A stretch of DNA of 33,599 bases from an uncultured Candidatus Saccharibacteria bacterium (GTDB taxonomy: Bacteria; Patescibacteriota; Minisyncoccia; Phycocordibacterales; PALSA-1337): the NCBI GenBank assembly GCA_964441635.1, contig CAYTUZ010000002.1, forward strand, positions 1 through 33,599, in the 5' to 3' direction. Shown piece by piece: positions 5,611-33,599 of this stretch. The position numbers and the translations under genes are program-made. Under the pieces are notes generated by a model that saw nothing but the letters and a program-made list of their open reading frames with translations, was not told where the DNA came from and made no database searches. Each line of letters opens with the position of its first letter. Position 1 is the first letter of the stretch.

Positions 5611-6765
5611 ATGCGCCGCATACTCATCTTTTCCCTAGTCTATTACCCGCGCTTTGTCGGCGGTGCCGAAGTGGCTGTAAAAGAAATAACTGATAGGATT
5701 CCGACCGAAGAAGTTCAATTTGACATGATAACTCTGCGCAAGCATGGAGCCGCTTTCGAACGGATCGGCAATGTGAATATTTATCGAGTCGGCTTGCCGT
5801 GGTTTGGTGGGAATACCAAAAGTTCCAGAATATTTCCGCTTTCCAAAATCCTTTATCCATACTTGGCATTCAGAAAAGCGGTCTCGCTCCACAGAAAAAG
5901 TGGTTATGATGCAGTTTGGCCGATTATGGCGAGTTACGCCGGTTTTGCCGCGGTCTTATTCAAGAGAAAATTTCCCAAGGTGCCTGTGATTCTTACTATC
6001 CAAGAAGGCGATAACTTCGAAAAGCGCGACGGCATATTCAAGCCCTTTTTCAAAAAGATATTCAAGGTTGCGGACAAAATCCAAGTGATCTCAAACTTTT
6101 TGGAAGTTTGGTCCCGGAAAATGGGTGCAACAGCTCCGATAACCGTCGTGCCAAACGCAGTTGATTATTCTTTATTTTCAAAGCCAATATCCGCTGAAAC
6201 TTCACGAATGTTAAGAGATAAGCTTGGCAAAAAAGAAGGTGACATATTTCTCATTACCACCTCACGTTTGGTGCCAAAGAATGGGATATCTGACATTATT
6301 GAATCGTTAAAATATTTGTCTCTGAACGTAAAACTTTTAATTCTTGGCACTGGTTATCTCGATTCTTATCTCCAATCTCGAGTCTCCAATCTCGGTTTGG
6401 TTGATCGTGTGCAATTCCTCGGCTTCATTCCTCACTCGGAAATGCCCGCATATTTGGATATGTCGGACATCTTCATTCGTCCATCGCTCTCTGAAGGCTT
6501 TGGCAACTCTTTCATCGAAGCTATGGCGGCAGGAATTCCAGTCATAGCGACACCGGTCGGCGGCATTGTGGACTTCTTGCGAGATGGCGAAACCGGACTT
6601 TTCTGTGAAGTGAAAAATCCCAAGAGCATCGCGCAGAAAGTAGAAAAGCTGATCAAAGACAGGGAATCCCGAGAATACATCGTGCGGCAGGCAAAAAAGA
6701 TGGTGGAAGAAAAGTATCAGTGGACAAGGATAGCGGGGGAGATGAAAGATATTTTCCTAGAATAA
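5611..6765 (+). CDS. Glycosyltransferase family 4 (GT-B, Glycos_transf_1 domain)
   Basis: MRRILIFSLVYYPRFVGGAEV N-terminus and C-terminal EGFGNSFIEAMAAGIPVIATPVGGIVDFLRDGETGLF signature. Confidence 0.85.
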   Translation: MRRILIFSLVYYPRFVGGAEVAVKEITDRIPTEEVQFDMITLRKHGAAFERIGNVNIYRVGLPWFGGNTKSSRIFPLSKILYPYLAFRKAVSLHRKSGYDAVWPIMASYAGFAAVLFKRKFPKVPVILTIQEGDNFEKRDGIFKPFFKKIFKVADKIQVISNFLEVWSRKMGATAPITVVPNAVDYSLFSKPISAETSRMLRDKLGKKEGDIFLITTSRLVPKNGISDIIESLKYLSLNVKLLILGTGYLDSYLQSRVSNLGLVDRVQFLGFIPHSEMPAYLDMSDIFIRPSLSEGFGNSFIEAMAAGIPVIATPVGGIVDFLRDGETGLFCEVKNPKSIAQKVEKLIKDRESREYIVRQAKKMVEEKYQWTRIAGEMKDIFLE

Positions 6766-6790
6766 AAAAAGCCTCGCAAGTGAGCGAGGC
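6764..6790 (-). terminator. Intrinsic terminator between convergent genes (canonical on the minus strand)
   Basis: GCCTCGC-AAGTGA-GCGAGGC hairpin at 6771-6790 preceded by A7 on the + strand. On the minus strand this reads as hairpin followed by T7, 36 nt after the stop of the 6826..7248 gene. Confidence 0.65.
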
Positions 6791-6825
6791 GTGAATGGAC
6801 TAGAGAACTGTGTCACGCACCCTTT

Positions 6826-7248
6826 TCATTTGAGTGCTGATGAGACAGTGTAGAGATCATTGATGCCAAAGGGATTTCTGGGCGGATCCACGCCTTTGCG
6901 GTAGATCTTGTGACCGGAGCTGGGGTCCGAAAGATTGCCCAAGAACCAAACTATCTCACCAGAGTCGAGTTGCATTGGCCCGCTGTAATATTCCTCGCAT
7001 GCTCTGTTGTAGAAGGCGTCATAGAATTTTGTGTCACTCGCTAAGTCCCATCTGTCGGCCATGGCATTATAGGCGAGCAAGCCCAAGCTTTCTGCTTGCA
7101 GATAGTTGGCGGTGATTTTGATAGATCTGATCAAATAACGGTGGTTCCCTAGAAAGAGTTTTTTCCCTCTCAACAACCACAATTCTGCCCAGCAGCCGAC
7201 CAAATCCATTCCCTTGAGGTCTTCGAAAGTGATTGGTTTGTATTTCAT
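6826..7248 (-). CDS. Hypothetical protein, 140 aa
   Basis: Long ORF followed by a canonical terminator. Starts 15 nt downstream of the preceding minus-strand ORF. No motif I recognise. Confidence 0.55.
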   Translation of the reverse strand: MKYKPITFEDLKGMDLVGCWAELWLLRGKKLFLGNHRYLIRSIKITANYLQAESLGLLAYNAMADRWDLASDTKFYDAFYNRACEEYYSGPMQLDSGEIVWFLGNLSDPSSGHKIYRKGVDPPRNPFGINDLYTVSSALK

Positions 7249-7263
7249 AAATCCTTTCGTTGT

Positions 7264-7560
7264 TTATACTCCCCACCACGAAGGCATAGATCTTGCCTCA
7301 TTTTCCGCGAAGACTTGTATTGCCCTTTTTCGCAGTCGCGGAGTAATGTAAACCGTTCCAGCGAGAATTTGGAAGAGTTCGTGTTCTCGCCTGAAGTCGT
7401 CACTGTCCATTTCCGACACATTCGGTTTACCTCTTTTGCGATGAAGCGCGAGAAGCGCTTTTTGAGTCTTCTTGAGATGGCGAGTGCGTGCGGCATAGTC
7501 GACCAAACTCTGCGTGGTCGAATCCGTTCGGTGCCGAAGTCGAGTATTTAGTTTTTTCAT
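7264..7560 (-). CDS. Hypothetical basic protein, ~98 aa (MKKLNTRLRHR...)
   Basis: ORF 7264..7614 in the track; the internal ATG at 7560 is preferred. Arg/Lys-rich. Forms a two-gene minus-strand unit with 6826..7248. Confidence 0.45.
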   Translation of the reverse strand: MKKLNTRLRHRTDSTTQSLVDYAARTRHLKKTQKALLALHRKRGKPNVSEMDSDDFRREHELFQILAGTVYITPRLRKRAIQVFAENEARSMPSWWGV

Positions 7561-7621
7561 AACATCTGGAATAGATATTACAAGCATTGCGAGGGTTGTC
7601 AAATAGAATCGCAAGAATTTC

Positions 7622-7650
7622 TTGAATATCCTAGTATCAAGTTGTAGAAT
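7622..7650 (+). promoter_or_regulatory. Candidate promoter TTGAAT - 17 nt - TAGAAT
   Basis: The -10 ends 8 nt before the ATG at 7659. Lies in the divergent intergenic region between the 7560(-) and 7659(+) genes. Confidence 0.4.
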
Positions 7651-7658
7651 GCAGCTTT

Positions 7659-8204
7659 ATGGCCGATAAAAAGACAATAGACCAACGTGTTGCAGATTAC
7701 GATCAGATAAAGCATGAAGCTTCTGATCTTTACAACACCTTTGTCTCTGTTGATTGTGCAGCTCTTGGTCAAAAAGTCGATTTTACTTCAGAGGGATTCA
7801 ATCATCTTGTTTATTCTGCACCCAAGAAGATGAGAGATAAAAGAGCTCAAATACTTCGTTTTGACATGCTCTCAAAAGCAAAATTTATTCTCGAAACATC
7901 GACTACGTTTCAAGAATATGAGGAAGAAATTATCAACAAAAGAGTTAACCGAAATGGCCATTGGGTTCCGAAAAGTGTTTTAGTTTGTCGCTGGGGATTT
8001 GTGGCAATAATACAAAAGTTTCGCGTAAAAGTCGTAGTTACCAAAGAAAGCAATGGGGCTGTAAAATTTCTTAGTGTTGCACCGGCTTGGCTAACAAAAT
8101 GGTACAGGAATATCAAGATTATAGAGACATCTGTGGGAAAAGGTTTAAATAATTCTGATGATGAGGAGGTACTAAAAAACGCCACAATAAGTGACGCCTT
8201 TTAG
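7659..8204 (+). CDS. Hypothetical protein, 181 aa
   Basis: Clean ORF with a plausible promoter. The VDFTSEGFNHLVY segment is only faintly reminiscent of small phage-associated nuclease-like domains, so no function is assigned. Confidence 0.6.
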   Translation: MADKKTIDQRVADYDQIKHEASDLYNTFVSVDCAALGQKVDFTSEGFNHLVYSAPKKMRDKRAQILRFDMLSKAKFILETSTTFQEYEEEIINKRVNRNGHWVPKSVLVCRWGFVAIIQKFRVKVVVTKESNGAVKFLSVAPAWLTKWYRNIKIIETSVGKGLNNSDDEEVLKNATISDAF

Positions 8205-9997: not shown

Positions 9998-11023
9998 ATG
10001 AAGATACTGATAGCATCAGGCATTTACCCGCCCGACATAGGCGGTCCGGCGCAATACGCGCGCAATCTTTATGAGACCTGGAAAAAGGCCGGTTACGATG
10101 TGAAAGTTGCGGCATATAGGTGGGAGCGCGCTCTGCCACCGGGTTTTCGGCATATCCTTTACTTCTTGAAAATCATCCGCAAAGGCTGGAATGCTGACCT
10201 CATCTTGGTTCTCGACACTTGGTCTGCCGCTGTGCCAACCATGTACGCTTGTCGGCTGATGGGCAAGAAATATGTCTTGCGCACCGGCGGCGACTTCTTG
10301 TGGGAATCGTACGTCGAAAGAACTGGCGACATGGTCTTGTTCAAAGATTTTTACCAAGCTCGCACAAATCTATTAAATCGCAAAGAAAAACTCGTTTTCA
10401 AACTCGGCCGAAGAGTACTACGTCACGCCAAGGTTTTAATCTTCAGCACGGATTGGCAGAGAAAAATATTTGAGAAAGCCTATAAGCTCGATCCCAAACA
10501 AAGTGTCATTATCGAAAACTTTTGCGGAGCTCGAGCCGAAGCTATCGAACCAGAAAATCGCACATTTATTGGTGGTACGCGAATCCTAAAATGGAAAAAT
10601 ATCGATTTGCTCAAACATGCTTTTGATACAGCACAGATACAGGTAAAAGCAAAAGGTTTGCCGGAAATAGAACTTGATCTCGGAAAAGCTGTCTATGACA
10701 GTTTCTTTGAGAAAATTCATAATGCATATGCTGTCATCTTGGTTTCGCTAGGCGACATTAGTCCAAACATGATCTTTGACGCTATTCGCGCTGGCACGCC
10801 GTTCATAGTCACAAAAGAAACTGGTATTGCCGATAGGATCAAAGATTGCGCCATTTTTGTCGATCCACAGAATGAAAAAGAAATCGTCGAGAAGATTGTC
10901 TGGCTATCTGATCCGAAGAATCGCGCCACGCAAGCCGAAAAAGTCAGGAATTTCAAATTTACCCATACTTGGGAGGATATTGGGAAAGAGATTGTCGAAG
11001 TCTCGAAAAAGAAAAGCAAATAG
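9998..11023 (+). CDS. Glycosyltransferase, GT4-like (GT-B fold)
   Basis: MKILIASGIYPPDIGGPAQYARNL N-terminus is typical of the WbuB-like GT4 N-domain. The track start at 9911 adds an implausible leader; ATG 9998 is preferred. Confidence 0.75.
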   Translation: MKILIASGIYPPDIGGPAQYARNLYETWKKAGYDVKVAAYRWERALPPGFRHILYFLKIIRKGWNADLILVLDTWSAAVPTMYACRLMGKKYVLRTGGDFLWESYVERTGDMVLFKDFYQARTNLLNRKEKLVFKLGRRVLRHAKVLIFSTDWQRKIFEKAYKLDPKQSVIIENFCGARAEAIEPENRTFIGGTRILKWKNIDLLKHAFDTAQIQVKAKGLPEIELDLGKAVYDSFFEKIHNAYAVILVSLGDISPNMIFDAIRAGTPFIVTKETGIADRIKDCAIFVDPQNEKEIVEKIVWLSDPKNRATQAEKVRNFKFTHTWEDIGKEIVEVSKKKSK

Positions 11024-11024
11024 C

Positions 11025-12038
11025 ATGGCCAAGAATTTGCTCATGATATCTATAGATCGCAAAATCTTCGAAGCAGGAAGCAACGTGCGCGCGCGCCAGA
11101 TCGAATATGCCAAAAGTTGGGATGAGGTTCACATTATCGTTGCAACTGATAGAAGTTATAAAGAGGTACACATTGCGCCCAATATCTGGGTTTATCCTAC
11201 ACGGTCATTGTTCAAGGTACTGTATCCTTTTGATGCTATTCGCCTCGGCAAATTCATCGCCAAAAGAAAAAATATTCAGCAAATTACTTGCCAAGATCCA
11301 TTCCTCACTGCAATGGCTGGCGTGACTTTGAAAAAGGAATTAAAAATTCCATTAGAAATTCAAATTCACACTGACATTGGCAGTCCAAATTATACTTATA
11401 CGCTTCTAAATAAAGTCAGAAAATATCTGGCACTTTCATACCTGCCAAGAGCTGACCACATTCGAGTTGTATCTCAAAGGGTGAAGGATTATTTGATGAC
11501 TGTCATTCCCGCGAAGGCGGGAATCCAGGATTTCATTACCGTACGTCCTATTGCTGTTGATACCGAATGGATAGTGAATACACCTATTATGATTGATTTG
11601 CACCATAAATATCCGCAGTTTGAAAAAATCGTGCTCATGGCTTCACGGCTGGAAAAAGAGAAAAATATCGAGCTGGCAATAAATTCATGGCCAAAAATAC
11701 TGGAAAAAATTCCAAAAGCAGGGCTTATTATTGTCGGTGCAGGATCAGAGGAAGCATCGCTTCGTAAACAAATCGCGAGGTGCGACCTCGAGAAGTCAGT
11801 CATAATCGAACCTTGGGCTCCAAAACAAATCCTCGCTTCTTATTACAAAACCGCGGATGCATTCTTGAACACTTCATTATTCGAAGGTTACGGTATGGCC
11901 TTGGTAGAAGCCAAAGCAGCGGGATGTCTCGTCATTTCAACCGACGTAGGCATTGCCAATGAAGTTGGCGCGACGATTATTAATTTTGATGAGAGTGATG
12001 TGGCGGAGAAGATTATTAAAATACTAAAAAGTGTCTAA
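11025..12038 (+). CDS. Glycosyltransferase family 4
   Basis: C-terminal FEGYGMALVEAKAAGCLVISTDVGIANEV motif. ATG 11025 lies 1 nt after the upstream stop. The track start at 10827 overlaps the previous gene. Confidence 0.8.
   Translation: MAKNLLMISIDRKIFEAGSNVRARQIEYAKSWDEVHIIVATDRSYKEVHIAPNIWVYPTRSLFKVLYPFDAIRLGKFIAKRKNIQQITCQDPFLTAMAGVTLKKELKIPLEIQIHTDIGSPNYTYTLLNKVRKYLALSYLPRADHIRVVSQRVKDYLMTVIPAKAGIQDFITVRPIAVDTEWIVNTPIMIDLHHKYPQFEKIVLMASRLEKEKNIELAINSWPKILEKIPKAGLIIVGAGSEEASLRKQIARCDLEKSVIIEPWAPKQILASYYKTADAFLNTSLFEGYGMALVEAKAAGCLVISTDVGIANEVGATIINFDESDVAEKIIKILKSV
11505..11524. repeat. GC-rich hairpin ATTCCCGC-GAAG-GCGGGAAT inside the CDS (encodes VIPAKAGIQ)
   Basis: Perfect 8-bp stem with a 4-nt loop, read directly. 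The host frame stays open. Confidence 0.6.
11776..11790. repeat. Short palindrome CGAGGT-GCG-ACCTCG (possible member of the GAGGT/ACCTC palindrome family)
   Basis: Shares the CGAGGT...ACCTCG arms with 21511-21546 and 24476-24490. A stem this short could be chance on its own. Confidence 0.3.
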
Positions 12039-12544: not shown

Positions 12545-13776
12545 AATTATTAGTTGTTACACAAGCAGTAGATGAGGACAATTCCGTATTGGCTTTTTTC
12601 CATGAATGGATCAAGGAATTTGCCAAGAATTGCGAACAGGTCACGGTTATTTGTCTCCAAAAAGGAAGGTATGAATTACCAAGCAATGTTAAAGTCGTGT
12701 CGCTTGGCAAGGGACGTGACTTTCTCGACCACGGAAAATTTCCTGCAGGAAATTTTCCTAGTCCTCGGAAATTTTCTGGTGAAAATTTCCTGCGTATGGT
12801 CTCGAAAATCACGTCCTTTGCCAAGCTCTGTTATGTAATCAATTTCTACAGATTTATTTTTCGTGAGCGAAAAAACTACGATGCGGTTTTTGTACACATG
12901 AATCCGATTTATGTGGTCCTAGGAGGCATCCTGTGGAAAAGCTGGGGAAAACCTGTGGGTATGTGGTATACGCATCGGAATGTTGACTTGAAGTTGAAGG
13001 TTGCCGAAAAACTGTCAAACGCCGTATTTACGGCCTCAAAAGAGAGTTTTTCACTACCAAGTAAGAAGGTAGTTATTGTGGGTCATGGCATTGATGTCGC
13101 TCGATTTGCAAATGTTAAAAGAGCCAAAGAATTGGGCATAGAACCGATCCGAATAATTTCTGTTGGCCGAATTACAGCTATAAAGAATTGCGATGTTTTG
13201 GTTGAGGCAGCTAGAATTCTGAAGGATAAGTGGCAGAAACAATTTGAAGTTTTCCTGATCGGTGCAGCTGTCACAACCGAAGACCAGTCGTATGAGCATA
13301 AGATCAAGAATCTGATTGACGCTTATGATTTGGAGAATATTGTGAAGTTGACTGGTAATATTTCGGCCGAAGAAATGCCTTTGCATTATTCGATGGCGGA
13401 CGCTTCGGTAAATTTGACCCCGACTGGCGGAGTTGATAAAGCGGTTTTGGAATCGATGGCTGCGGGTGTGCCGGTATTTTCGTCAAATAAGACTTTTACA
13501 GATTATTTTGGTTCGTACGCTGAAGATCTTATTTTCCAAGAAAAAAATGCGGTAGATTTGGCAGACAAAATCATGAAATTATTCTCGGGCAATCAGCTGG
13601 CAGAGCTTAGCGAATCTGAAAAGAAAACCGCGCGCGAACGAGCGGACGTTTCAGCTTTAATCTTGATGGTCGTGACGCAGATGTCCCTACTTCGCTCCTC
13701 GCAGACTCCTTCTTCGCCAAGGCTTCGAAGGACAAGTCGGAGCTACGCAGGGCAAGCTGACGTTGTTAAAAAGTAA
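12541..13776 (+). CDS. Glycosyltransferase family 4 carrying an in-frame palindromic insert and a repeat-derived C-terminal tail
   Basis: MKLLVVTQAVDEDNSVLAFFHEWIKEFA N-terminus and GGVDKAVLESMAAGVPVFSS C-domain. ATGA overlap with the GtrA gene. Confidence 0.8.
   Translation: MKLLVVTQAVDEDNSVLAFFHEWIKEFAKNCEQVTVICLQKGRYELPSNVKVVSLGKGRDFLDHGKFPAGNFPSPRKFSGENFLRMVSKITSFAKLCYVINFYRFIFRERKNYDAVFVHMNPIYVVLGGILWKSWGKPVGMWYTHRNVDLKLKVAEKLSNAVFTASKESFSLPSKKVVIVGHGIDVARFANVKRAKELGIEPIRIISVGRITAIKNCDVLVEAARILKDKWQKQFEVFLIGAAVTTEDQSYEHKIKNLIDAYDLENIVKLTGNISAEEMPLHYSMADASVNLTPTGGVDKAVLESMAAGVPVFSSNKTFTDYFGSYAEDLIFQEKNAVDLADKIMKLFSGNQLAELSESEKKTARERADVSALILMVVTQMSLLRSSQTPSSPRLRRTSRSYAGQADVVKK
12702..12826. 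repeat. Compound palindromic element, copy 1 (MITE/RPE-like)
   Basis: Inverted outer arms plus two internal perfect hairpins at 12733-12758 and 12767-12790. The core is repeated at 19298-19396. Confidence 0.85.
13685..13752. repeat. Imperfect GC-rich hairpin forming the last ~25 codons of the GT4 gene
   Basis: Paired segments CCCT/AGGG, GCTCC/GGAGC, TCCTTC/GAAGGA and GCC/GGC, separated by near-symmetric internal loops. Encodes LLRSSQTPSSPRLRRTSRSYAGQA. Confidence 0.45.
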
Positions 13777-18255: not shown

Positions 18256-19795
18256 AAACAAAAAAGAGCTGATCGTGACGTCGCTTTTTTGCGCCGCCTT
18301 ATTTTTCAGTACCTACAAACTCAGTGAAAGTCCGCCAACATGGCTCGATGAAGGCATGATCGTGCAAACATCAAAGACTCTGGTTGAAGAAGGAGTCTAT
18401 TCCGTAAAAGTTGCGCCTGACACGTATATTTCTCCGGGTTTCATTTCCACAAGTTACCCTGTGACATTTCCAATCGCATTATCTTTCAAACTCTTTGGCG
18501 TTGGTTTGCTTCAAGCCAGAAGTGTAATGGTTATTTATATTTTAGCATTTCTTTTATCGATTTATTTTCTAGCAAAAAGACTTTTCAAGAATGAATGGCT
18601 AATGATCGCCGGTTTGGCGCTATTGGTCAGTTTTCCGCCACTTTATGGCAATGGCAAAAACGTGCTTGGCGAAGTCCCCGGGCTTTTCTTCTTGACGGTG
18701 TTTTTGATATTCATCGACCGGATTTGGAAAGGCGACCGGCGCATTTCACAATTCATTCTTGCCGGCTTGACACTGGGCCTTTGTATTGCCACCAAGCCGA
18801 TTTTTATTTTACTGCTTCCTGTTGTGGCAATGTGGCTCTTATACGTCTGGTTAAAAAAGCCTGAAGTTTTTGGTCGTGGCATAATCAAAAACAGCTTATA
18901 TTTTATTGTTTGCGCATTGTTACCGCTCGTCGCATGGATAATGATCCAGTTTCGTGGTGATTCGTTTGTCGCAACTCTTTCTTATTACGCGAATCCGCAC
19001 AGTGTAAATTTGGCGACATCTTTGCTCTCGAATATAAAAGCTTTTTTGACGGCGCCGGAATCGTTGTATTTCTTTGCTCTTTATTTGGTTTGGTTGACGG
19101 CGGTCACATTCAGAGTTTGGTCCAAAAAGAATATCGAAGTCGCGGAATTGGTCGCTTTTGGTTTTTCCACCCTAGTTTTACTGGCATATTTTAGAAATCC
19201 GGCTTATTATCGCTATTTTTTCTTGGCGGAGGTTTATTGCTTGTTATTCTTTGTGCAAACACTTAACTTTATTATTGGGACGCGCCCGAAGGCGGCCGAT
19301 GTGACTTCCTCGACCACGGAAAATTTCCTGCAGGAAATTTTCCTACGGAATTTTCTGGTGAAAATTTCCTGCGTATGGTCTCGGAAATCACATCGGCCGC
19401 TTTCGGGCGCTGGCATCTCAATATTTGTTATTGTGTTTGCACTTATTATTTTCCAATCCTACCAACTCCTTTTTCATTCTTGGGTTTCGCAATATTATGG
19501 CAGTACCAAAACTCGCGATTGTGTCGCGGCTATCGGAAAAATTCCGCAAGCAAAATCCATTTTCTTTTATCAAGATCCGGAACTGGTTATTTTCCGCGCT
19601 GGCGGCAATTATTACCAATATATGGATAGCATCGAAACCGATCAGAGCCGCACTGAAAAGAAGCGCTTGATCAAACAAGGGGTTCCGGATATTGTGGCGG
19701 TTTCGAGTGAAATAATGCCGCAAATACAGGATATTTTGGAGAAATACGTCTCATCGAGTTCTTGTGACCGATATCAGATATTGAATAAGAAATAG
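18227..19795 (+). CDS. GT-C fold membrane glycosyltransferase (ArnT/PMT-like, GT39/GT83-type)
   Basis: More than 10 TM helices. First-loop acidic motif PPTWLDEGM, typical of polyprenyl-phosphate-sugar-dependent GT-C enzymes. The start is ambiguous (18191, 18227 or 18239) and overlaps the upstream gene. Confidence 0.7.
   Translation: MKKAMQWLIKNKKELIVTSLFCAALFFSTYKLSESPPTWLDEGMIVQTSKTLVEEGVYSVKVAPDTYISPGFISTSYPVTFPIALSFKLFGVGLLQARSVMVIYILAFLLSIYFLAKRLFKNEWLMIAGLALLVSFPPLYGNGKNVLGEVPGLFFLTVFLIFIDRIWKGDRRISQFILAGLTLGLCIATKPIFILLLPVVAMWLLYVWLKKPEVFGRGIIKNSLYFIVCALLPLVAWIMIQFRGDSFVATLSYYANPHSVNLATSLLSNIKAFLTAPESLYFFALYLVWLTAVTFRVWSKKNIEVAELVAFGFSTLVLLAYFRNPAYYRYFFLAEVYCLLFFVQTLNFIIGTRPKAADVTSSTTENFLQEIFLRNFLVKISCVWSRKSHRPLSGAGISIFVIVFALIIFQSYQLLFHSWVSQYYGSTKTRDCVAAIGKIPQAKSIFFYQDPELVIFRAGGNYYQYMDSIETDQSRTEKKRLIKQGVPDIVAVSSEIMPQIQDILEKYVSSSSCDRYQILNKK
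19282..19410. repeat. Compound palindromic element, copy 2
   Basis: Same core as 12716-12814 with 2 substitutions and 5-nt plus 1-nt indels. The outer arms are GCGCCCGAAGGCGGCCGATGTGA / TCACATCGGCCGCTTTCGGGCGC. Confidence 0.85.
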
Positions 19796-20788: not shown

Positions 20789-21928
20789 ATGAAGATAATT
20801 TATTTAGCTGACATACGCCTACCCACGGAAAAAGCTCACGGTTTTCAAATCATGAAGACCTGCGAGGCTTTGGTGCGAGTGGGGAACGAGATCACGCTTA
20901 TGATTCCTTCTTGGAACAAAGCGACTCCGGAGGAAATATTCAAATATTATGGTTTGACGCAAAGCTTCTCAATTGAGAAAATTCCTCAGACAAAATTCAA
21001 TCTCATAAAATTTGGATCAATTGGTTTTGCTTTGCGATCATATTTTTTTGCCAAAAAAGCAGCTGGCAAATTGGGGGGTCGTGAGTTTGACGCTGTTTAC
21101 ACCAGAGATGAAGCAGTTGCGGTATACAGAGGTCCGACCTCTGTATTTTATGAGATGCATGACGTGAGAAAGGGTCTTCTTCAAAAGAAGGCGATGACTC
21201 GCGCATCTGGAATCATTGCTATTTCTAATGGGCTAAAAGATTATTGTGTTGCGCAGGGAATTGATCAATCGAAAATAACGGTTGTGCCTGATGCGGTTGA
21301 TCTGGAAGAATTTGATATCGAACAAAACAAGGACGATGTCCGACATCGCCTAGGTTTACCAAAAGATAAGAAAATTGTTCTTTATTCCGGGCATTTGTAT
21401 TCTTGGAAAGGCGCTGACACTCTGGCGGAAGCCGCACATTATTTGGATGCCGATACCGTCGTCGTATTTGTCGGCGGTACACCTTGGGATATTGAATCTT
21501 TCAAAAATAAATATCGAGGTGCCACCTCGAGGTGCCACCTCGATATTATTGGCCAGAAACCCCACTCAGAGATTCCTTTGTATCTGAAAGCCGCTGATGT
21601 TCTAGTATTGCCAAATAGCGCCAAAGAAGACATTTCGCGGCTTTACACTTCACCGGTGAAGCTCTTCGAATACATGGCATCCGGCGTGCCGATCGTGGCT
21701 TCGGACTTGCCCTCGATCCGAGAAATCTTGAACGAGGAATGTGCGGTTTTTGCCAAACCTGACGATGCTCTGTCGCTCGCCGAGAAAATCAAATATTCTT
21801 TGGCTAATGTTTCCAAAGCTGTTATACTCTCTAATCGAGCGCTTGAAGAGGTCAAAAAATATTCTTGGGGCATGCGTGCCAAGCATATCCTCACGTTTAT
21901 GAAGATGCGGTTGAATGCAAAGCAATAA
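20789..21928 (+). CDS. Glycosyltransferase family 4
   Basis: MKIIYLADIRLPTEKAHGFQIMKTCEAL N-domain and TSPVKLFEYMASGVPIVASDLPSIREIL C-domain. ATG is 1 nt after the upstream stop. Confidence 0.85.
   Translation: MKIIYLADIRLPTEKAHGFQIMKTCEALVRVGNEITLMIPSWNKATPEEIFKYYGLTQSFSIEKIPQTKFNLIKFGSIGFALRSYFFAKKAAGKLGGREFDAVYTRDEAVAVYRGPTSVFYEMHDVRKGLLQKKAMTRASGIIAISNGLKDYCVAQGIDQSKITVVPDAVDLEEFDIEQNKDDVRHRLGLPKDKKIVLYSGHLYSWKGADTLAEAAHYLDADTVVVFVGGTPWDIESFKNKYRGATSRCHLDIIGQKPHSEIPLYLKAADVLVLPNSAKEDISRLYTSPVKLFEYMASGVPIVASDLPSIREILNEECAVFAKPDDALSLAEKIKYSLANVSKAVILSNRALEEVKKYSWGMRAKHILTFMKMRLNAKQ
21124..21146. repeat. 23-nt palindrome ATACAGAGGTC-C-GACCTCTGTAT inside the CDS
   Basis: 11-bp arms. Bases 21126-21146 are identical to the reverse complement of 33398-33418. 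Confidence 0.8.
21511..21546. repeat. 36-nt palindrome and tandem duplication ATAT(CGAGGTGCCACCT)x2CGATAT inside the CDS
   Basis: The 13-nt unit is duplicated in tandem. The whole block is self-complementary except for the two unit centres. Encodes RGATSRCHL. Confidence 0.75.
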
Positions 21929-22634: not shown

Positions 22635-23497
22635 ATTCTGCCTGCATTGTCTGTGCGAACAAAAAACATTCTCCGTATGCCACCAAAAGCGGTTACGAAG
22701 TCTGGAAGTGCGCGCAGTGCGGAACACTTTTTTTGTATCCACTTCCAAAAGCCGAAGAAGCGGCGGCTGTGTACAGTCAAGACTATTTTGGCGGCGCTCT
22801 CGATGGCCACGGCTATGTGAACTATGACGCTGACAAAGAAGCGATGCGAACGATTTTCATTCGGCATCTTATTCACTTCGAAAAGTTATTGGGCAAGCCC
22901 GGGAAAATACTGGACGTAGGTGCAGCCACAGGTTTTTTTATGAAGATAGCAAAAACGCGCGGTTGGCAGGTTCATGGTGTTGAAATCTCTGCTTACGCGG
23001 CAGAGCAGGGCAGAAAAGACGGCCTAGATATTGTTACCGGAACTCTCCAAAATGTTAAGCAAACGGATAATACTTTCGATCTCATAACGATGTGGGACGT
23101 GATCGAGCATATGCCGGATCCGGTTTCAGATTTGAATCGCGTTCGTTCTTTGCTAAAGCCGGGCGGACTAGTTGCTGTGAATACCCCTGATTCCGGTTCT
23201 TTTTATTCGAAGCTGATGGGCTCGCGCTGGCATCTCTTCGTGCCGCCAGAGCACATTTGGTATTTCAACCGAAAAAGCATTGCCACACTTTTGAATAACA
23301 GTGGCTTTGAAGTCCTTGAGATCGGCTGCGTCGGTAAGAAATTCACTGTGGAATATGTAATCAATTTTCTGTATAGGTGGCAAGGATTGGTCATTTGGCG
23401 CAAGCTGTCCGACCGCTTAAAAAATACGCGCATAGGGAAACTTTATTTTTCCATTAATTTGCGCGACAACATGTATGTTTTGGCAAAGAAAAAATAA
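22631..23497 (+). CDS. Class I SAM-dependent methyltransferase with an N-terminal Cys4 zinc ribbon (paralog of 16001..16969)
   Basis: CIVCAN...CAQCGTLF ribbon. ILDVGAATGFF SAM motif. DLITMWDVIEHMPDP and LKPGGLVAVNTPD motifs. ATGA overlap with the upstream stop. Confidence 0.8.
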   Translation: MNSACIVCANKKHSPYATKSGYEVWKCAQCGTLFLYPLPKAEEAAAVYSQDYFGGALDGHGYVNYDADKEAMRTIFIRHLIHFEKLLGKPGKILDVGAATGFFMKIAKTRGWQVHGVEISAYAAEQGRKDGLDIVTGTLQNVKQTDNTFDLITMWDVIEHMPDPVSDLNRVRSLLKPGGLVAVNTPDSGSFYSKLMGSRWHLFVPPEHIWYFNRKSIATLLNNSGFEVLEIGCVGKKFTVEYVINFLYRWQGLVIWRKLSDRLKNTRIGKLYFSINLRDNMYVLAKKK

Positions 23498-25352
23498 AAT
23501 TACTCTCGAAGAATACACTCCCTCCTCGCCACGACGAAGTGTCTTCGTTCGGCTCGTCCCTCGCGGACTCGGGACTCGACCGAAGTCGACACTTGTCGCT
23601 GGCTGCGACGGTCGTGCATTCTTCGGAATAATCTTAATTCTTGTAACAATTTTTCTTTGCCTAGTGTCAGTCATGCTAATAACGCACAAAATCGGCAATA
23701 ATTGGCAAGGCATACCGCCGCAAGTTATTGATGACGATCTCTATTACTATGCGCGTATCACCGATGTCGCCAAAGGCCACCCATTCTTGGGAAATCCTTA
23801 TTTCCTCGAATACAGTGGCGCGATGGCTCCGGCTTTTTTCCTGCCAGACTGGATCAATGCCGCGCCGCTTTTACTCGGCCTGCCGCTCATCCCGACCATC
23901 ATCCTAAATTTCCTCTTGTGGTCGGTTATCTTCACGATCCTTATCTATCTGATCGCGCGCCAGTTCGACCTATCGCCGCCGGCTTCGGCTATTGCCGCTA
24001 TCGTTTCTTTTTTGGAAACTTATTGGCTCATGATGCGTCCAGTTGCCATGCAAGTCATTTTTCCATCATTTTTGTTATTTTTGCTAGCACTCATTCTTTG
24101 GCTAAAACAAAAAGACAATCGAAGCCGCCAAATATTCCTGATCATAGCAAGCGCTCTCACTTTTTATCTTTACGCTTACTTGTGGCAGATCGTCTGCATA
24201 ATTCTCGGCCTTTTATTCATTTATTTTCTCTTCCAGAAGCAAATCAAAACCGCGCGACAACTCTTCGTTATTTTTATCGGAACGATCGTCCTATCAATTC
24301 CAGCTATTATTTACACTGTGAAGCAAATTCAAGCACCCTTTTATTGGCAGACTATTGCTAGAATCGGACTCATTTCGACACATTTGCCAGCTTACTACGC
24401 TTACCAATATGGCCGCTGGGTGATAATCGTTTTGGCGGCGTATTTCTTGGTTTGGTGGGTCGAAGTCCGACATCACGAGGTCCGACCTCGGCCAGAAATT
24501 ATCGCCCTTATTTTTTCCGGTTTGGGATTATTGATAATGTCGGTTAGTAATCTCTTGACTGGCAAAGAATTGGAAACAGCTTTGCATACTGGCAGATTCA
24601 TCACTTTGTGGGTGCCAATGTTCTTTACGATCTTGATTTTCAGGTGGTGGAAAGAAAAAACATTATTTAGCAGATCAAATTGGCAAGGTTCAGCTTTGTT
24701 TATAAAGGTTTGTATATGTATTTTAATATTACTGACAGCAGGTTTTCTCGTTTCAAACCTCAATCGTTCTTTACCTTGGAGCCAAATCAGCCGTACGGAT
24801 TTCAAACCATACCAAGAATATGCCGCGCCATTTGACTGGTTAAATCAAAATGCTTCTTCCTCGAACGTCATTTGGGCAAACGAGAACATTAGCACTTATC
24901 TTCCAGTCATGACCCGAGATTACGTATTCTGGGATCATCTCGGCACTTTACATTTGATGCCGAGCCGAGAAGTCGAAGACAGATTCCTTCTTTCTTGGAT
25001 TGGGACGTCGACTTCCGCGGCGGATCTCATTGGCGATTACAGATCATATGACGGTGCTGGTCCGGTCTGGAAATACACCGACCTATATTACAAGAATAGG
25101 TTAGGTTGCGATTTCAAACTATCCTGTGCACCTGACAAAACTTTGGCGCAATGGATTGGCATAGGGTTTATCAAGGATTTGGAAGCTCGGCAAGCGATAC
25201 TGAAGAGTAACTTAAAAGAAAATCTCAAGAAATATTCGGTCAGCTATGCGGTTGCAGACAAGTCGCTCGATGAAGATAAATATTTTGACACGCTGCCATT
25301 CCTCAAACAGGTCTGGCACAATCAGCGATTTGTCATTTACAAAGTTAAATAA
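23475..25352 (+). CDS. Large polytopic membrane protein with a C-terminal soluble domain; possible GT-C-like glycosyltransferase
   Basis: About 12 hydrophobic helices. Acidic first-loop motif VIDDDLYYYARI. Sits next to a Ppm1-like GT2. The family assignment is inference. Confidence 0.6.
   Translation: MFWQRKNKITLEEYTPSSPRRSVFVRLVPRGLGTRPKSTLVAGCDGRAFFGIILILVTIFLCLVSVMLITHKIGNNWQGIPPQVIDDDLYYYARITDVAKGHPFLGNPYFLEYSGAMAPAFFLPDWINAAPLLLGLPLIPTIILNFLLWSVIFTILIYLIARQFDLSPPASAIAAIVSFLETYWLMMRPVAMQVIFPSFLLFLLALILWLKQKDNRSRQIFLIIASALTFYLYAYLWQIVCIILGLLFIYFLFQKQIKTARQLFVIFIGTIVLSIPAIIYTVKQIQAPFYWQTIARIGLISTHLPAYYAYQYGRWVIIVLAAYFLVWWVEVRHHEVRPRPEIIALIFSGLGLLIMSVSNLLTGKELETALHTGRFITLWVPMFFTILIFRWWKEKTLFSRSNWQGSALFIKVCICILILLTAGFLVSNLNRSLPWSQISRTDFKPYQEYAAPFDWLNQNASSSNVIWANENISTYLPVMTRDYVFWDHLGTLHLMPSREVEDRFLLSWIGTSTSAADLIGDYRSYDGAGPVWKYTDLYYKNRLGCDFKLSCAPDKTLAQWIGIGFIKDLEARQAILKSNLKENLKKYSVSYAVADKSLDEDKYFDTLPFLKQVWHNQRFVIYKVK
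23529..23604. repeat. GC-rich imperfect hairpin within codons ~19-44 of the membrane-protein ORF
   Basis: Paired blocks GCCA/TGGC, CGAC/GTCG, AAGTGTC/GACACTT, TTCGG/CCGAA and GTCCC/GGGAC around the loop TCGCGGACTC. Confidence 0.55.
24476..24490. repeat. Palindrome CGAGGTC-C-GACCTCG inside the CDS
   Basis: Shares the 13-mer GAGGTCCGACCTC with 21129-21141. Preceded by a direct repeat of GTCCGAC. Confidence 0.45.
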
Positions 25353-32016: not shown

Positions 32017-33599
32017 ATGTGCGGCATAACCGGATTTATAGGCAAGGGCAACGAAGATACGCTTCAGAAAATGACGGCGGCAGTCAAACACCGCGGACCG
32101 GACGATACCGGTATATTTTTTGATGAACAAAAGGGAATCGGCCTCGGCCATGCACGGCTTTCGATCCTTGATGTTAGCGCTGCCGGTCACCAGCCGATGT
32201 GGAGCAGTGATAAGCAGATTGCTATTGTATTTAACGGCGAGATATACAATTTCCAAGAACTAAAAACAGAATTGAAAGCACACCATGGTTGCCGATTTGA
32301 AAGCACGTCCGATACCGAAGTCATAATTTACGCCTATAAAGTTTTTGGCGAGAAGTGCTTCGAGAAAATGGAAGGCATGTTCGCCATCGCGATTTACGAT
32401 TTTCCAAAGAATCGGCTGATTTTGGCTCGCGATCGCGCGGGCAAAAAACCGCTTTACTGGACGCTTACGAATGGCACGTTTATTTTTGGCTCGGAATTGA
32501 AATCGTTGGTATTGCATCCTGCTTTCAAAAAAGAGCTTGACCTAGAATCAGTCAACAAGTATTTGCAATTTGACTACGTGCCAACACCACATACCATCTG
32601 GAAAAACGTGCACAAACTCGAACCGGCATCTTACATGGTTTTTGAAGCGGGTAAGATCAGAAAAGCAGAATATTGGTTGCCGAAGTTCGAGGAAACGAAG
32701 CTATCATTTGCTGAAGCAAAAAAGCGGTTAGGTGCGATGATCGCAGAATCGGTCAGTAACCGTCTAGTTGCCGATGTGCCCGTGGGCGTATTTCTTTCTG
32801 GCGGCCTAGACAGCTCGACGATTGCTTATTACGCGAAGCAGCAAAGCAAAAGTAAAGTCAAAACGTTTTCTATTGGTTTTCAGGAAAAAAGCTTTGATGA
32901 ATCGAACTATGCCCGCGAAGTCGCTACATTTTTGGGCACAGAACATTATGAGAAAATATTTACCAGTGCGGATTGTATCAGTGTTATTCCCGAAGTCCTG
33001 AATGCGCTCGATGAACCCATGGCGGATGCTTCGATAATTCCCACGTACTTGCTTTCGCAATTTGCCAGAGAATATGTGACCGTTGCTTTGGGTGGCGACG
33101 GCGGTGACGAACTATTTGCTGGCTATCCAACATTCCAAGCGGAAAAACTGCTCACAATATACAAAAAAGTACCGGCAATGTTGAGGAGTAGAGTCATTGA
33201 ACCCTTGATAAGAGCGTTGCCTTCGTCGGCCAATAACTTTAGTCTCGATTTTAAGTTGAAGAAATTCCTTGAAGGTGTCAATGCTTCTAATTCACACAGG
33301 CATCAGGTTTGGCTCGGCTCCTTCAACAGAGAAGAACGTTCACAACTCTTCAAACCCGAAGTGTGGAATAGGCTCGAAAACAATAATGAGTTTGAAGATA
33401 CAGAGGTCGGACCTCTGTTGTACCAATATGAGAGGACTTATTTGATGGATGAAGTCTTGGTCAAGGTCGATCGCGCGACTATGCTCGCATCACTCGAAGC
33501 GAGGTCGCCTTTTTTGGATTATAGGATTGCGGATTTCGCCCATTCATTGCCTTATGATTTCAAAATCAAAGGTTTCAAAACCAAATACATATTGAAAAA
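32017..33599 (+). CDS. asnB: Asparagine synthase (glutamine-hydrolysing) family amidotransferase, 3' end cut by window edge
   Basis: Not in the ORF track because there is no stop in the window. I read the frame as open from ATG 32017, directly after the upstream TAA. MCGITGFIG Ntn nucleophile, SGGLDSST PP-loop and VALGGDGGDELFAGY motifs. Confidence 0.85.
   Translation, partial: MCGITGFIGKGNEDTLQKMTAAVKHRGPDDTGIFFDEQKGIGLGHARLSILDVSAAGHQPMWSSDKQIAIVFNGEIYNFQELKTELKAHHGCRFESTSDTEVIIYAYKVFGEKCFEKMEGMFAIAIYDFPKNRLILARDRAGKKPLYWTLTNGTFIFGSELKSLVLHPAFKKELDLESVNKYLQFDYVPTPHTIWKNVHKLEPASYMVFEAGKIRKAEYWLPKFEETKLSFAEAKKRLGAMIAESVSNRLVADVPVGVFLSGGLDSSTIAYYAKQQSKSKVKTFSIGFQEKSFDESNYAREVATFLGTEHYEKIFTSADCISVIPEVLNALDEPMADASIIPTYLLSQFAREYVTVALGGDGGDELFAGYPTFQAEKLLTIYKKVPAMLRSRVIEPLIRALPSSANNFSLDFKLKKFLEGVNASNSHRHQVWLGSFNREERSQLFKPEVWNRLENNNEFEDTEVGPLLYQYERTYLMDEVLVKVDRATMLASLEARSPFLDYRIADFAHSLPYDFKIKGFKTKYILK
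33398..33418. repeat. Palindrome ACAGAGGTC-G-GACCTCTGT inside asnB (reverse-orientation copy of 21126-21146)
   Basis: Exact 21-nt reverse-complement match to the GT4-gene copy. Confidence 0.8.

Follow-up and report, generated by a model that had tools for sequence, protein, structure and literature searches.

What is known of REP/RAYT systems comes mainly from Proteobacteria, in which the repeats are located between genes. These systems, also called REPtrons, combine short dispersed hairpin repeats (REPs, or REPINs as in Pseudomonas) with a RAYT, a single Y1/HUH gene (TnpA-REP in Escherichia coli, structure 4ER8) flanked by its own hairpins, whose type is specific to that gene (PMC2817692, PMC3116915, PMC3479197). 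The hairpin repeats described here, which were analyzed starting from a stretch of CPR (Patescibacteria) DNA of 33,599 nt, referred to in its entirety as the window, resemble these systems in each of those respects, and the best fold match of the associated Y1 protein is 4ER8. They differ from them in several ways. The CPR palindromes are perfect, 13–23 nt in length, and have a 1-nt center; the nuclease gene itself contains an in-frame copy; intragenic copies are numerous (6 of 6 in the window) and replace codons; the Y1 protein scores below the NCBIfam cut-off for RAYTs; and the hosts are CPR bacteria. The GTAG/CGTC tag at the hairpin foot that defines classical REPs is absent from the 174 gene-linked hairpins, which are near-random in sequence beyond about ±10, and was also sought without success in 30 copies of the GAGGTC type. 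Literature searches on hairpin repeats of CPR found no description of them.

[quoted passage not shown] 2013, PMC3733652). These, like the CPR copies, are translated inside functional genes, often DNA-repair genes (uvrA and uvrB in their case, uvrB in locus L001 and mutY in locus L010 in the present one), but they are GTAG/CGTC-tagged inserts that add 20–30 residues, whereas the focal CPR copies add none. The Rickettsia palindromic elements (RPEs) are similar in that palindromic repeats are tolerated in frame in coding genes of a reduced genome; however, RPEs are about 100–150 bp long, add a peptide segment, and are without a known partner enzyme, whereas the CPR hairpin has 13–23 nt, is accompanied by changes of −2 and about −14 aa at the focal sites, and is linked to a Y1 gene. 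The DNA uptake sequences of Neisseria (DUS) and Pasteurellaceae (USS) are also short over-represented words that are read in several frames, occupy poorly conserved segments, and replace sequence, but their words are oriented, do not vary in type, and occur about once per kb, whereas the type of the CPR hairpin varies with the neighboring nuclease gene.

Palindromic Repeats in the Window

The sequence-only reading of this DNA had reported a 23-nt perfect palindrome lying in frame in a GT4 glycosyltransferase gene, together with an exact 21-nt twin in inverted orientation within asnB, and re-reading of the sequence confirms both. Positions 21124–21146 are ATACAGAGGTC-C-GACCTCTGTAT, with arms of 11 nt, and positions 33398–33418, ATACAGAGGTCGGACCTCTGT, are the reverse complement of 21126–21146, which is the same word with G at its center; the similarity between the two focal copies runs to 24 nt at 96%. 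Among the shorter palindromes that had been listed as related, those at 24476–24490 and in the region 21511–21546 belong with them, and the one at 11776–11790 has 6-nt arms and a non-symmetric center of 3 nt. The members in the window are the following.

21124–21146: focal copy 1, perfect 23-nt palindrome, in a GT4 gene with a called start at 20789; in frame as V-YRGPTSV-FY
33398–33418: focal copy 2, inverted 21-mer with center G, in an AsnB-family gene; translated as DTEVGPL, in a frame unlike that of copy 1
21510–21547: tandem pair of 13-nt units GAGGTG-C-CACCTC, which together make a near-palindrome of 38 nt; host gene as for focal copy 1; translated as YRGATSRCHLD
24476–24490: shorter family member CGAGGTC-C-GACCTCG, in the gene for a polytopic membrane protein (23475–25352); translated as HEVRPR
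11776–11790: CGAGGT-GCG-ACCTCG, a member of degenerate or hybrid form, in a second GT4 gene (10827–12038); 6-bp stem and 3-nt loop

The 19-mer ACAGAGGTCSGACCTCTGT is present twice in the window compared with an expectation of 0.02, a count that was reached in 0 of 100 shuffles. The more general pattern GAGGT-N3-ACCTC occurs six times (at 11777, 21129, 21516, 21529, 24477, and 33403), which is a local density of about 1 per 5.6 kb, and did not occur in 100 dinucleotide-preserving shuffles of the window. All six copies are inside long ORFs that stay open, and all three codon phases are represented; the host genes encode two GT4 glycosyltransferases, a 625-aa polytopic membrane protein, and an AsnB-family amidotransferase. 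An apparent clustering of the hairpins in glycan genes is not significant, because such genes make up most of the window. Folded as single-stranded DNA, the copies in the window form hairpins with energies from −5.6 to −14.5 kcal/mol (z from −2.8 to −8.2 relative to shuffled controls), the values being −8.4 kcal/mol (z −5.9) for focal copy 1 and −14.5 kcal/mol (z −8.2) for the tandem units at 21510–21547. As a single-stranded DNA oligonucleotide, the hairpin word has the form TTACAGAGGTC(C/G)GACCTCTGTAA.

The window also contains palindromic sequences of other kinds. The GT4 gene at 10827–12038 includes, in frame at 11497–11533, the sequence TGTCATTCCCGCGAAGGCGGGAATCCAGGA with the hairpin ATTCCCGC-GAAG-GCGGGAAT. 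This stretch of ∼35 nt is the sole match of the window to hundreds of unrelated Logan contigs from four rhizosphere runs, and the depth over it in rhizosphere runs is 290–870 compared with about 5 elsewhere; it looks like a different, extremely widespread hairpin repeat. A compound palindromic element at 19293–19451 is present also at 12713–12815, and ∼100 nt are missing at the corresponding place (1416–1472) in L024, a syntenic contig with 73% identity to the window.

Distribution of the Family

Both the palindrome and its twin are members of a dispersed hairpin repeat family of CPR/Patescibacteria. In a public genome collection of 596 Gb, the exact 19-mer is found at 22 loci, compared with roughly 4 expected under uniform composition. 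The flanks of these loci are unrelated to each other, and nearly all of the records are Patescibacteria/CPR metagenome-assembled genomes, the labels “Gammaproteobacteria” and “Saccharibacteria” that some third-party bins bear being unverified. Five assemblies have 2–3 copies each, and the identical 19-mer recurs across assemblies of 32–52% GC; a search of viral contigs did not find it. The dispersed family that had been proposed from the window is real, as these 22 loci indicate, but its proposed confinement to coding sequence is true of the window only, since about 60% of the copies in other genomes are outside ORFs of at least 80 aa.

The coding copies in other genomes are in uvrB (L001), mutY-like (L010), valS (L021), leucyl aminopeptidase (L020), and MurL-like genes. 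Their phases are distributed 10:6:5, so that all three are used, and the peptides YRG(P/R)TSV, TEV(G/R)PL, and QRSDLC recur among their products. None of the six frames of the hairpin word contains a stop codon, and the word can therefore occupy any frame or orientation. Chance coincidence, or convergence on a peptide motif, has a negligible probability as an explanation: YRG(P/R)TSV does resemble a KY-x-G-R-S/T segment of Y1 proteins, but the copies are read in three different frames, the counts observed in the window were not attained by any of the 100 shuffles, and 22 further exact copies exist elsewhere. The sequence GAGGTSNSACCTC, which is present 6 times in the 33.6-kb window, compared with a single occurrence in 395 kb of CPR loci whose hairpins are of other types, points to lineage-specific amplification.

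When 30 GAGGTC-type copies were oriented by their center base, the only extension was the symmetric TTACA...TGTAA, and neither an asymmetric tail nor a consistent T-tract was found in their flanks. These flanks bear on a role at the RNA level, in which the hairpins would be terminators, attenuators, or mRNA stabilizers selected for that function. T-runs follow several of the intergenic copies (L002, L004, and L009), and the tandem unit at 21514–21543 is weakly terminator-like in a terminator scan. However, a T-tract is not a consistent feature, the six window copies are all inside open ORFs, with the focal copies differing from intrinsic terminators in being internal to genes as opposed to at their ends, the same scan did not flag 21124–21146, and an Rfam scan of the window matched no family. 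Such a role is very improbable.

One assembly (L015) has four family hairpins in intergenic spacers ∼1.5 kb apart, at 2609, 4218, 5758, and 7319. Two of the four have a longer palindrome of 29 nt, AGTTGGCAGAGGTCAGACCTCTGCCAACT, and therefore the outer stems differ around a constant GAGGTC-N-GACCTC apex. The record L009 is labeled Candidatus Pacearchaeota archaeon, and its ORF at 6460–7998 encodes a bacterial-type DnaG primase (TIGR01391, 442 bits). Spread of the hairpin across domains, which this record would have indicated, was rejected because the presence of a bacterial-type dnaG makes the archaeal label doubtful.

Comparison of Coding Sites with Orthologs

It had been suggested in the sequence-only reading that orthologs might lack 7–8 inserted codons. 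Instead, the orthologs have other sequence at these positions, and the window proteins are shorter, by 2 aa in the GT4 and by ∼14 aa in AsnB. The coding sites compare with their homologs as follows.

GT4, focal copy 1: net −2 aa; unrelated sequence at the same place in 26 orthologs
GT4, tandem units at 21510–21547: net +9 nt (+3 aa); the unrelated stretch found here in L024 is shorter by 9 nt
AsnB, twin at 33398–33418: net about −14 aa; in a segment of variable length in orthologs
Membrane protein, copy at 24477: length within the range of orthologs; in a hydrophilic loop that is length-variable among 25 orthologs
MutY (L010): net 0; LYRGRTSVSD aligns with LFADREKVSD
UvrB (L001): net +2 aa; hairpin over the EFFG-E-I segment
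PepA (L020), two units: net +8 aa, versus a distant homolog
ValRS (L021): net +18 aa, versus a distant homolog only

The net change in length is thus mixed across the coding sites and includes losses, zero, and gains. In L024, the GT4 flanks are conserved up to the edge of the palindrome, and the contig has no family member. Judged from these alignments, the coding copies occupy tolerant loops, which in the window are variable in sequence and length, and they commonly replace codons; the two focal copies are not accounted for by simple insertion.

A search for an empty-site allele in contig L023, which is 96% identical to the window, found the same palindromes, and a search of Logan contigs from eight rhizosphere runs, which either carried the palindromes or were uninformative, revealed no empty allele. 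No recent gain or loss, and no mobility event, was seen in L023 or in the eight runs. A palindrome-free form in run X4 was considered as an empty allele and rejected, as it belongs to a 73%-identical organism of the L024 type. The form in question, at window positions 21145–21165 (loose end CTCCAGGATATCTTCATTGAAGCAAAAGGC), is in a 3.4-kb Logan contig with an L024-type, palindrome-free GT4 site, and a hairpin-free related species therefore co-occurs in that rhizosphere sample.

Y1/HUH Genes Carrying the Hairpin

A motif scan of the fetched loci for HUH-Tyr ORFs gave a single one, L005 5547–6221 on the minus strand, which matches Pfam Y1_Tnp (PF01797) with 32.4 bits (cut-off 23 bits). Just upstream of this gene is a nested palindrome of 42 nt, built around the core ACAAAGGTCCGACCTTTGT, its interior contains ACAAAGGTCGGACCTTTG in frame, and downstream are two hairpin copies, one of which is the exact 19-mer of the window, 44 nt past the stop codon. 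A homolog in locus L105 contains the exact 21-mer TACAGAGGTCGGACCTCTGTA in frame at +168. The L005 protein has 425 homologs at E ≤ 1e-10, and in 69 of 83 homolog loci, a set that includes 80 further loci fetched from metagenomes, perfect and mutually matching AGG-N5-CCT hairpins are near the gene, with median positions of −40, +172, and +47; the hairpin at the +172 median is in frame and falls on the conserved segment K-Y-x-G-R-S/T. The hairpin type (AGGTT, AGGAC, AGGTC, and others) is the same within a locus and different between loci. The AGG-N5-CCT apex is universal among the gene-linked hairpins, in which the A at −5 and the T at +5, neither of them imposed by the search, are 98–100% conserved. 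The GAGG subtype found in the window is a minority class among the Y1-linked hairpins.

The best NCBIfam match of the Y1 protein is NF047646, REP-associated tyrosine transposase, with 40.2 bits, which is below the 80-bit cut-off. In a Foldseek search with its AlphaFold model (pLDDT 86), the top match was 4ER8, the complex of Escherichia coli TnpA-REP with a REP hairpin (E 3e-7; TM 0.63 on the target), followed by the TnpA proteins of IS608 and ISDra2; at the level of sequence, the match of the protein to the Protein Data Bank is weak (E about 0.2). No Y1 gene was found in the 33,599 nt of the window, and the source runs yielded no close relative of the gene in L005.

Within the Y1 genes, the hairpin (6035–6052 in L005 and 5169–5189 in L105) coincides with the conserved K-Y-x-G-R-S/T segment, in which the Gly is invariant and which corresponds to columns ∼70–80 of the protein alignment. 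Read in the frame of this segment, the window palindrome encodes the look-alike peptide YRGPTSV. A single 151-nt Logan contig from run X5 matches only the AAAGGTC-type hairpins of L005, at 6035–6054 and 6248–6266, which it contains back to back; it looks like a tandem hairpin doublet of another organism in the sample.

Discussion

The family is best interpreted, with a probability of roughly 0.7, as a REP/RAYT-type system of CPR, in which the hairpins are the cognate sites of RAYT-like Y1/HUH nucleases and the copies in the window are orphans. Among the options raised by the sequence-only reading, the one that fits best is the propagation of a site recognized by a nuclease, as the hairpin is located on, and in frame in, RAYT-like Y1/HUH genes; no evidence for a role in restriction-modification or methylation was found in sequence analysis. 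The conserved apex of the family is AGG-N5-CCT, and the subtype in the window is (T)ACAGAGGTC-S-GACCTCTGT(A). The hairpins are predicted to be the DNA sites of RAYT-like Y1/HUH single-strand nucleases that form a large clade, the genes of which typically have a matching hairpin at three places, ahead of the gene, in frame within it, and after it. The copies in the window, which would be orphans, are scattered over a glycan-synthesis cluster. By analogy with TnpA-REP in 4ER8, the nuclease may bind the folded hairpin on single-stranded DNA and cut and rejoin the DNA beside it. New copies would then probably arise through this nuclease activity followed by short-patch templated repair, rather than by simple insertion.

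A different possibility is that the hairpin is a recognition site selected by the host, such as a DNA-uptake signal, a site for a nucleoid or repair protein, or an operator, which accumulates in place through mutation and recombination and which the Y1 genes carry by chance. Reliance on DNA uptake, which is generally presumed for CPR bacteria, would suit such a role, as would the replacement of sequence without insertion, which is the behavior of uptake sequences, and the identity of the 19-mer across assemblies that differ widely in GC content (32–52%). What weakens this explanation most is that the hairpin type tracks the adjacent nuclease gene, differing by locus but matching the copies of the neighboring Y1 gene in 69 of 83 loci. 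The GAGGTC type is, moreover, almost absent from CPR DNA that has other types and, as regards uptake in particular, one copy per ∼5.6 kb is less than typical densities of uptake signals and the repeat is a full hairpin rather than an oriented word. A host-selected site is consequently quite improbable.

Few copies of the hairpin in the Y1 loci are far from the gene (7 in 293 kb), and given this rarity most Y1 hairpin systems do not look highly amplified. The scarcity of dispersed copies near most Y1 genes would be expected if the hairpins arose and spread independently of the nuclease, for example through replication template switching at quasi-palindromes or gene conversion between copies, and if the Y1 protein were domesticated and bound the hairpins without generating new ones. 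Replacement without net insertion, the perfect arms, and the tandem and back-to-back units are in keeping with such a process, as is the view that RAYTs are domesticated single-copy genes (PMC5581495). Template switching would explain the perfection of the arms but not the presence of the same 19–23-nt word in unrelated genes and distant genomes, and it provides no account of the fixed three-site layout on the Y1 genes. Spread of this kind is considered unlikely.

How a cognate site of this type might enter a gene can be proposed only tentatively, and the odds are against the proposal as a whole: the CPR Y1/HUH nuclease might write its hairpin of ∼20 nt over the existing sequence, a site of loose similarity being nicked or broken and then repaired by short-patch copying from another copy, with no insertion of DNA, and the hairpins in surface-glycan genes could also diversify those genes by acting as break or recombination points. 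If this copying-over of codons were true, it would be an undescribed route for the persistence of selfish DNA where intergenic space is scarce, allowing spread without a gain in length and the colonization of essential genes in very compact genomes, and it would be a recurrent source of variation in protein loops.

As interpreted here, the family extends the REP/RAYT principle to the very compact genomes of CPR, in the form of a hairpin that is smaller, perfect, and untagged, and that lives largely inside genes, including repair genes, a tRNA-synthetase gene, and the gene of the nuclease itself. The 13–23-nt words are markers for annotation, and they explain the odd, non-homologous loop peptides YRGPTSV, TEVGPL, and QRSDLC in CPR proteins.
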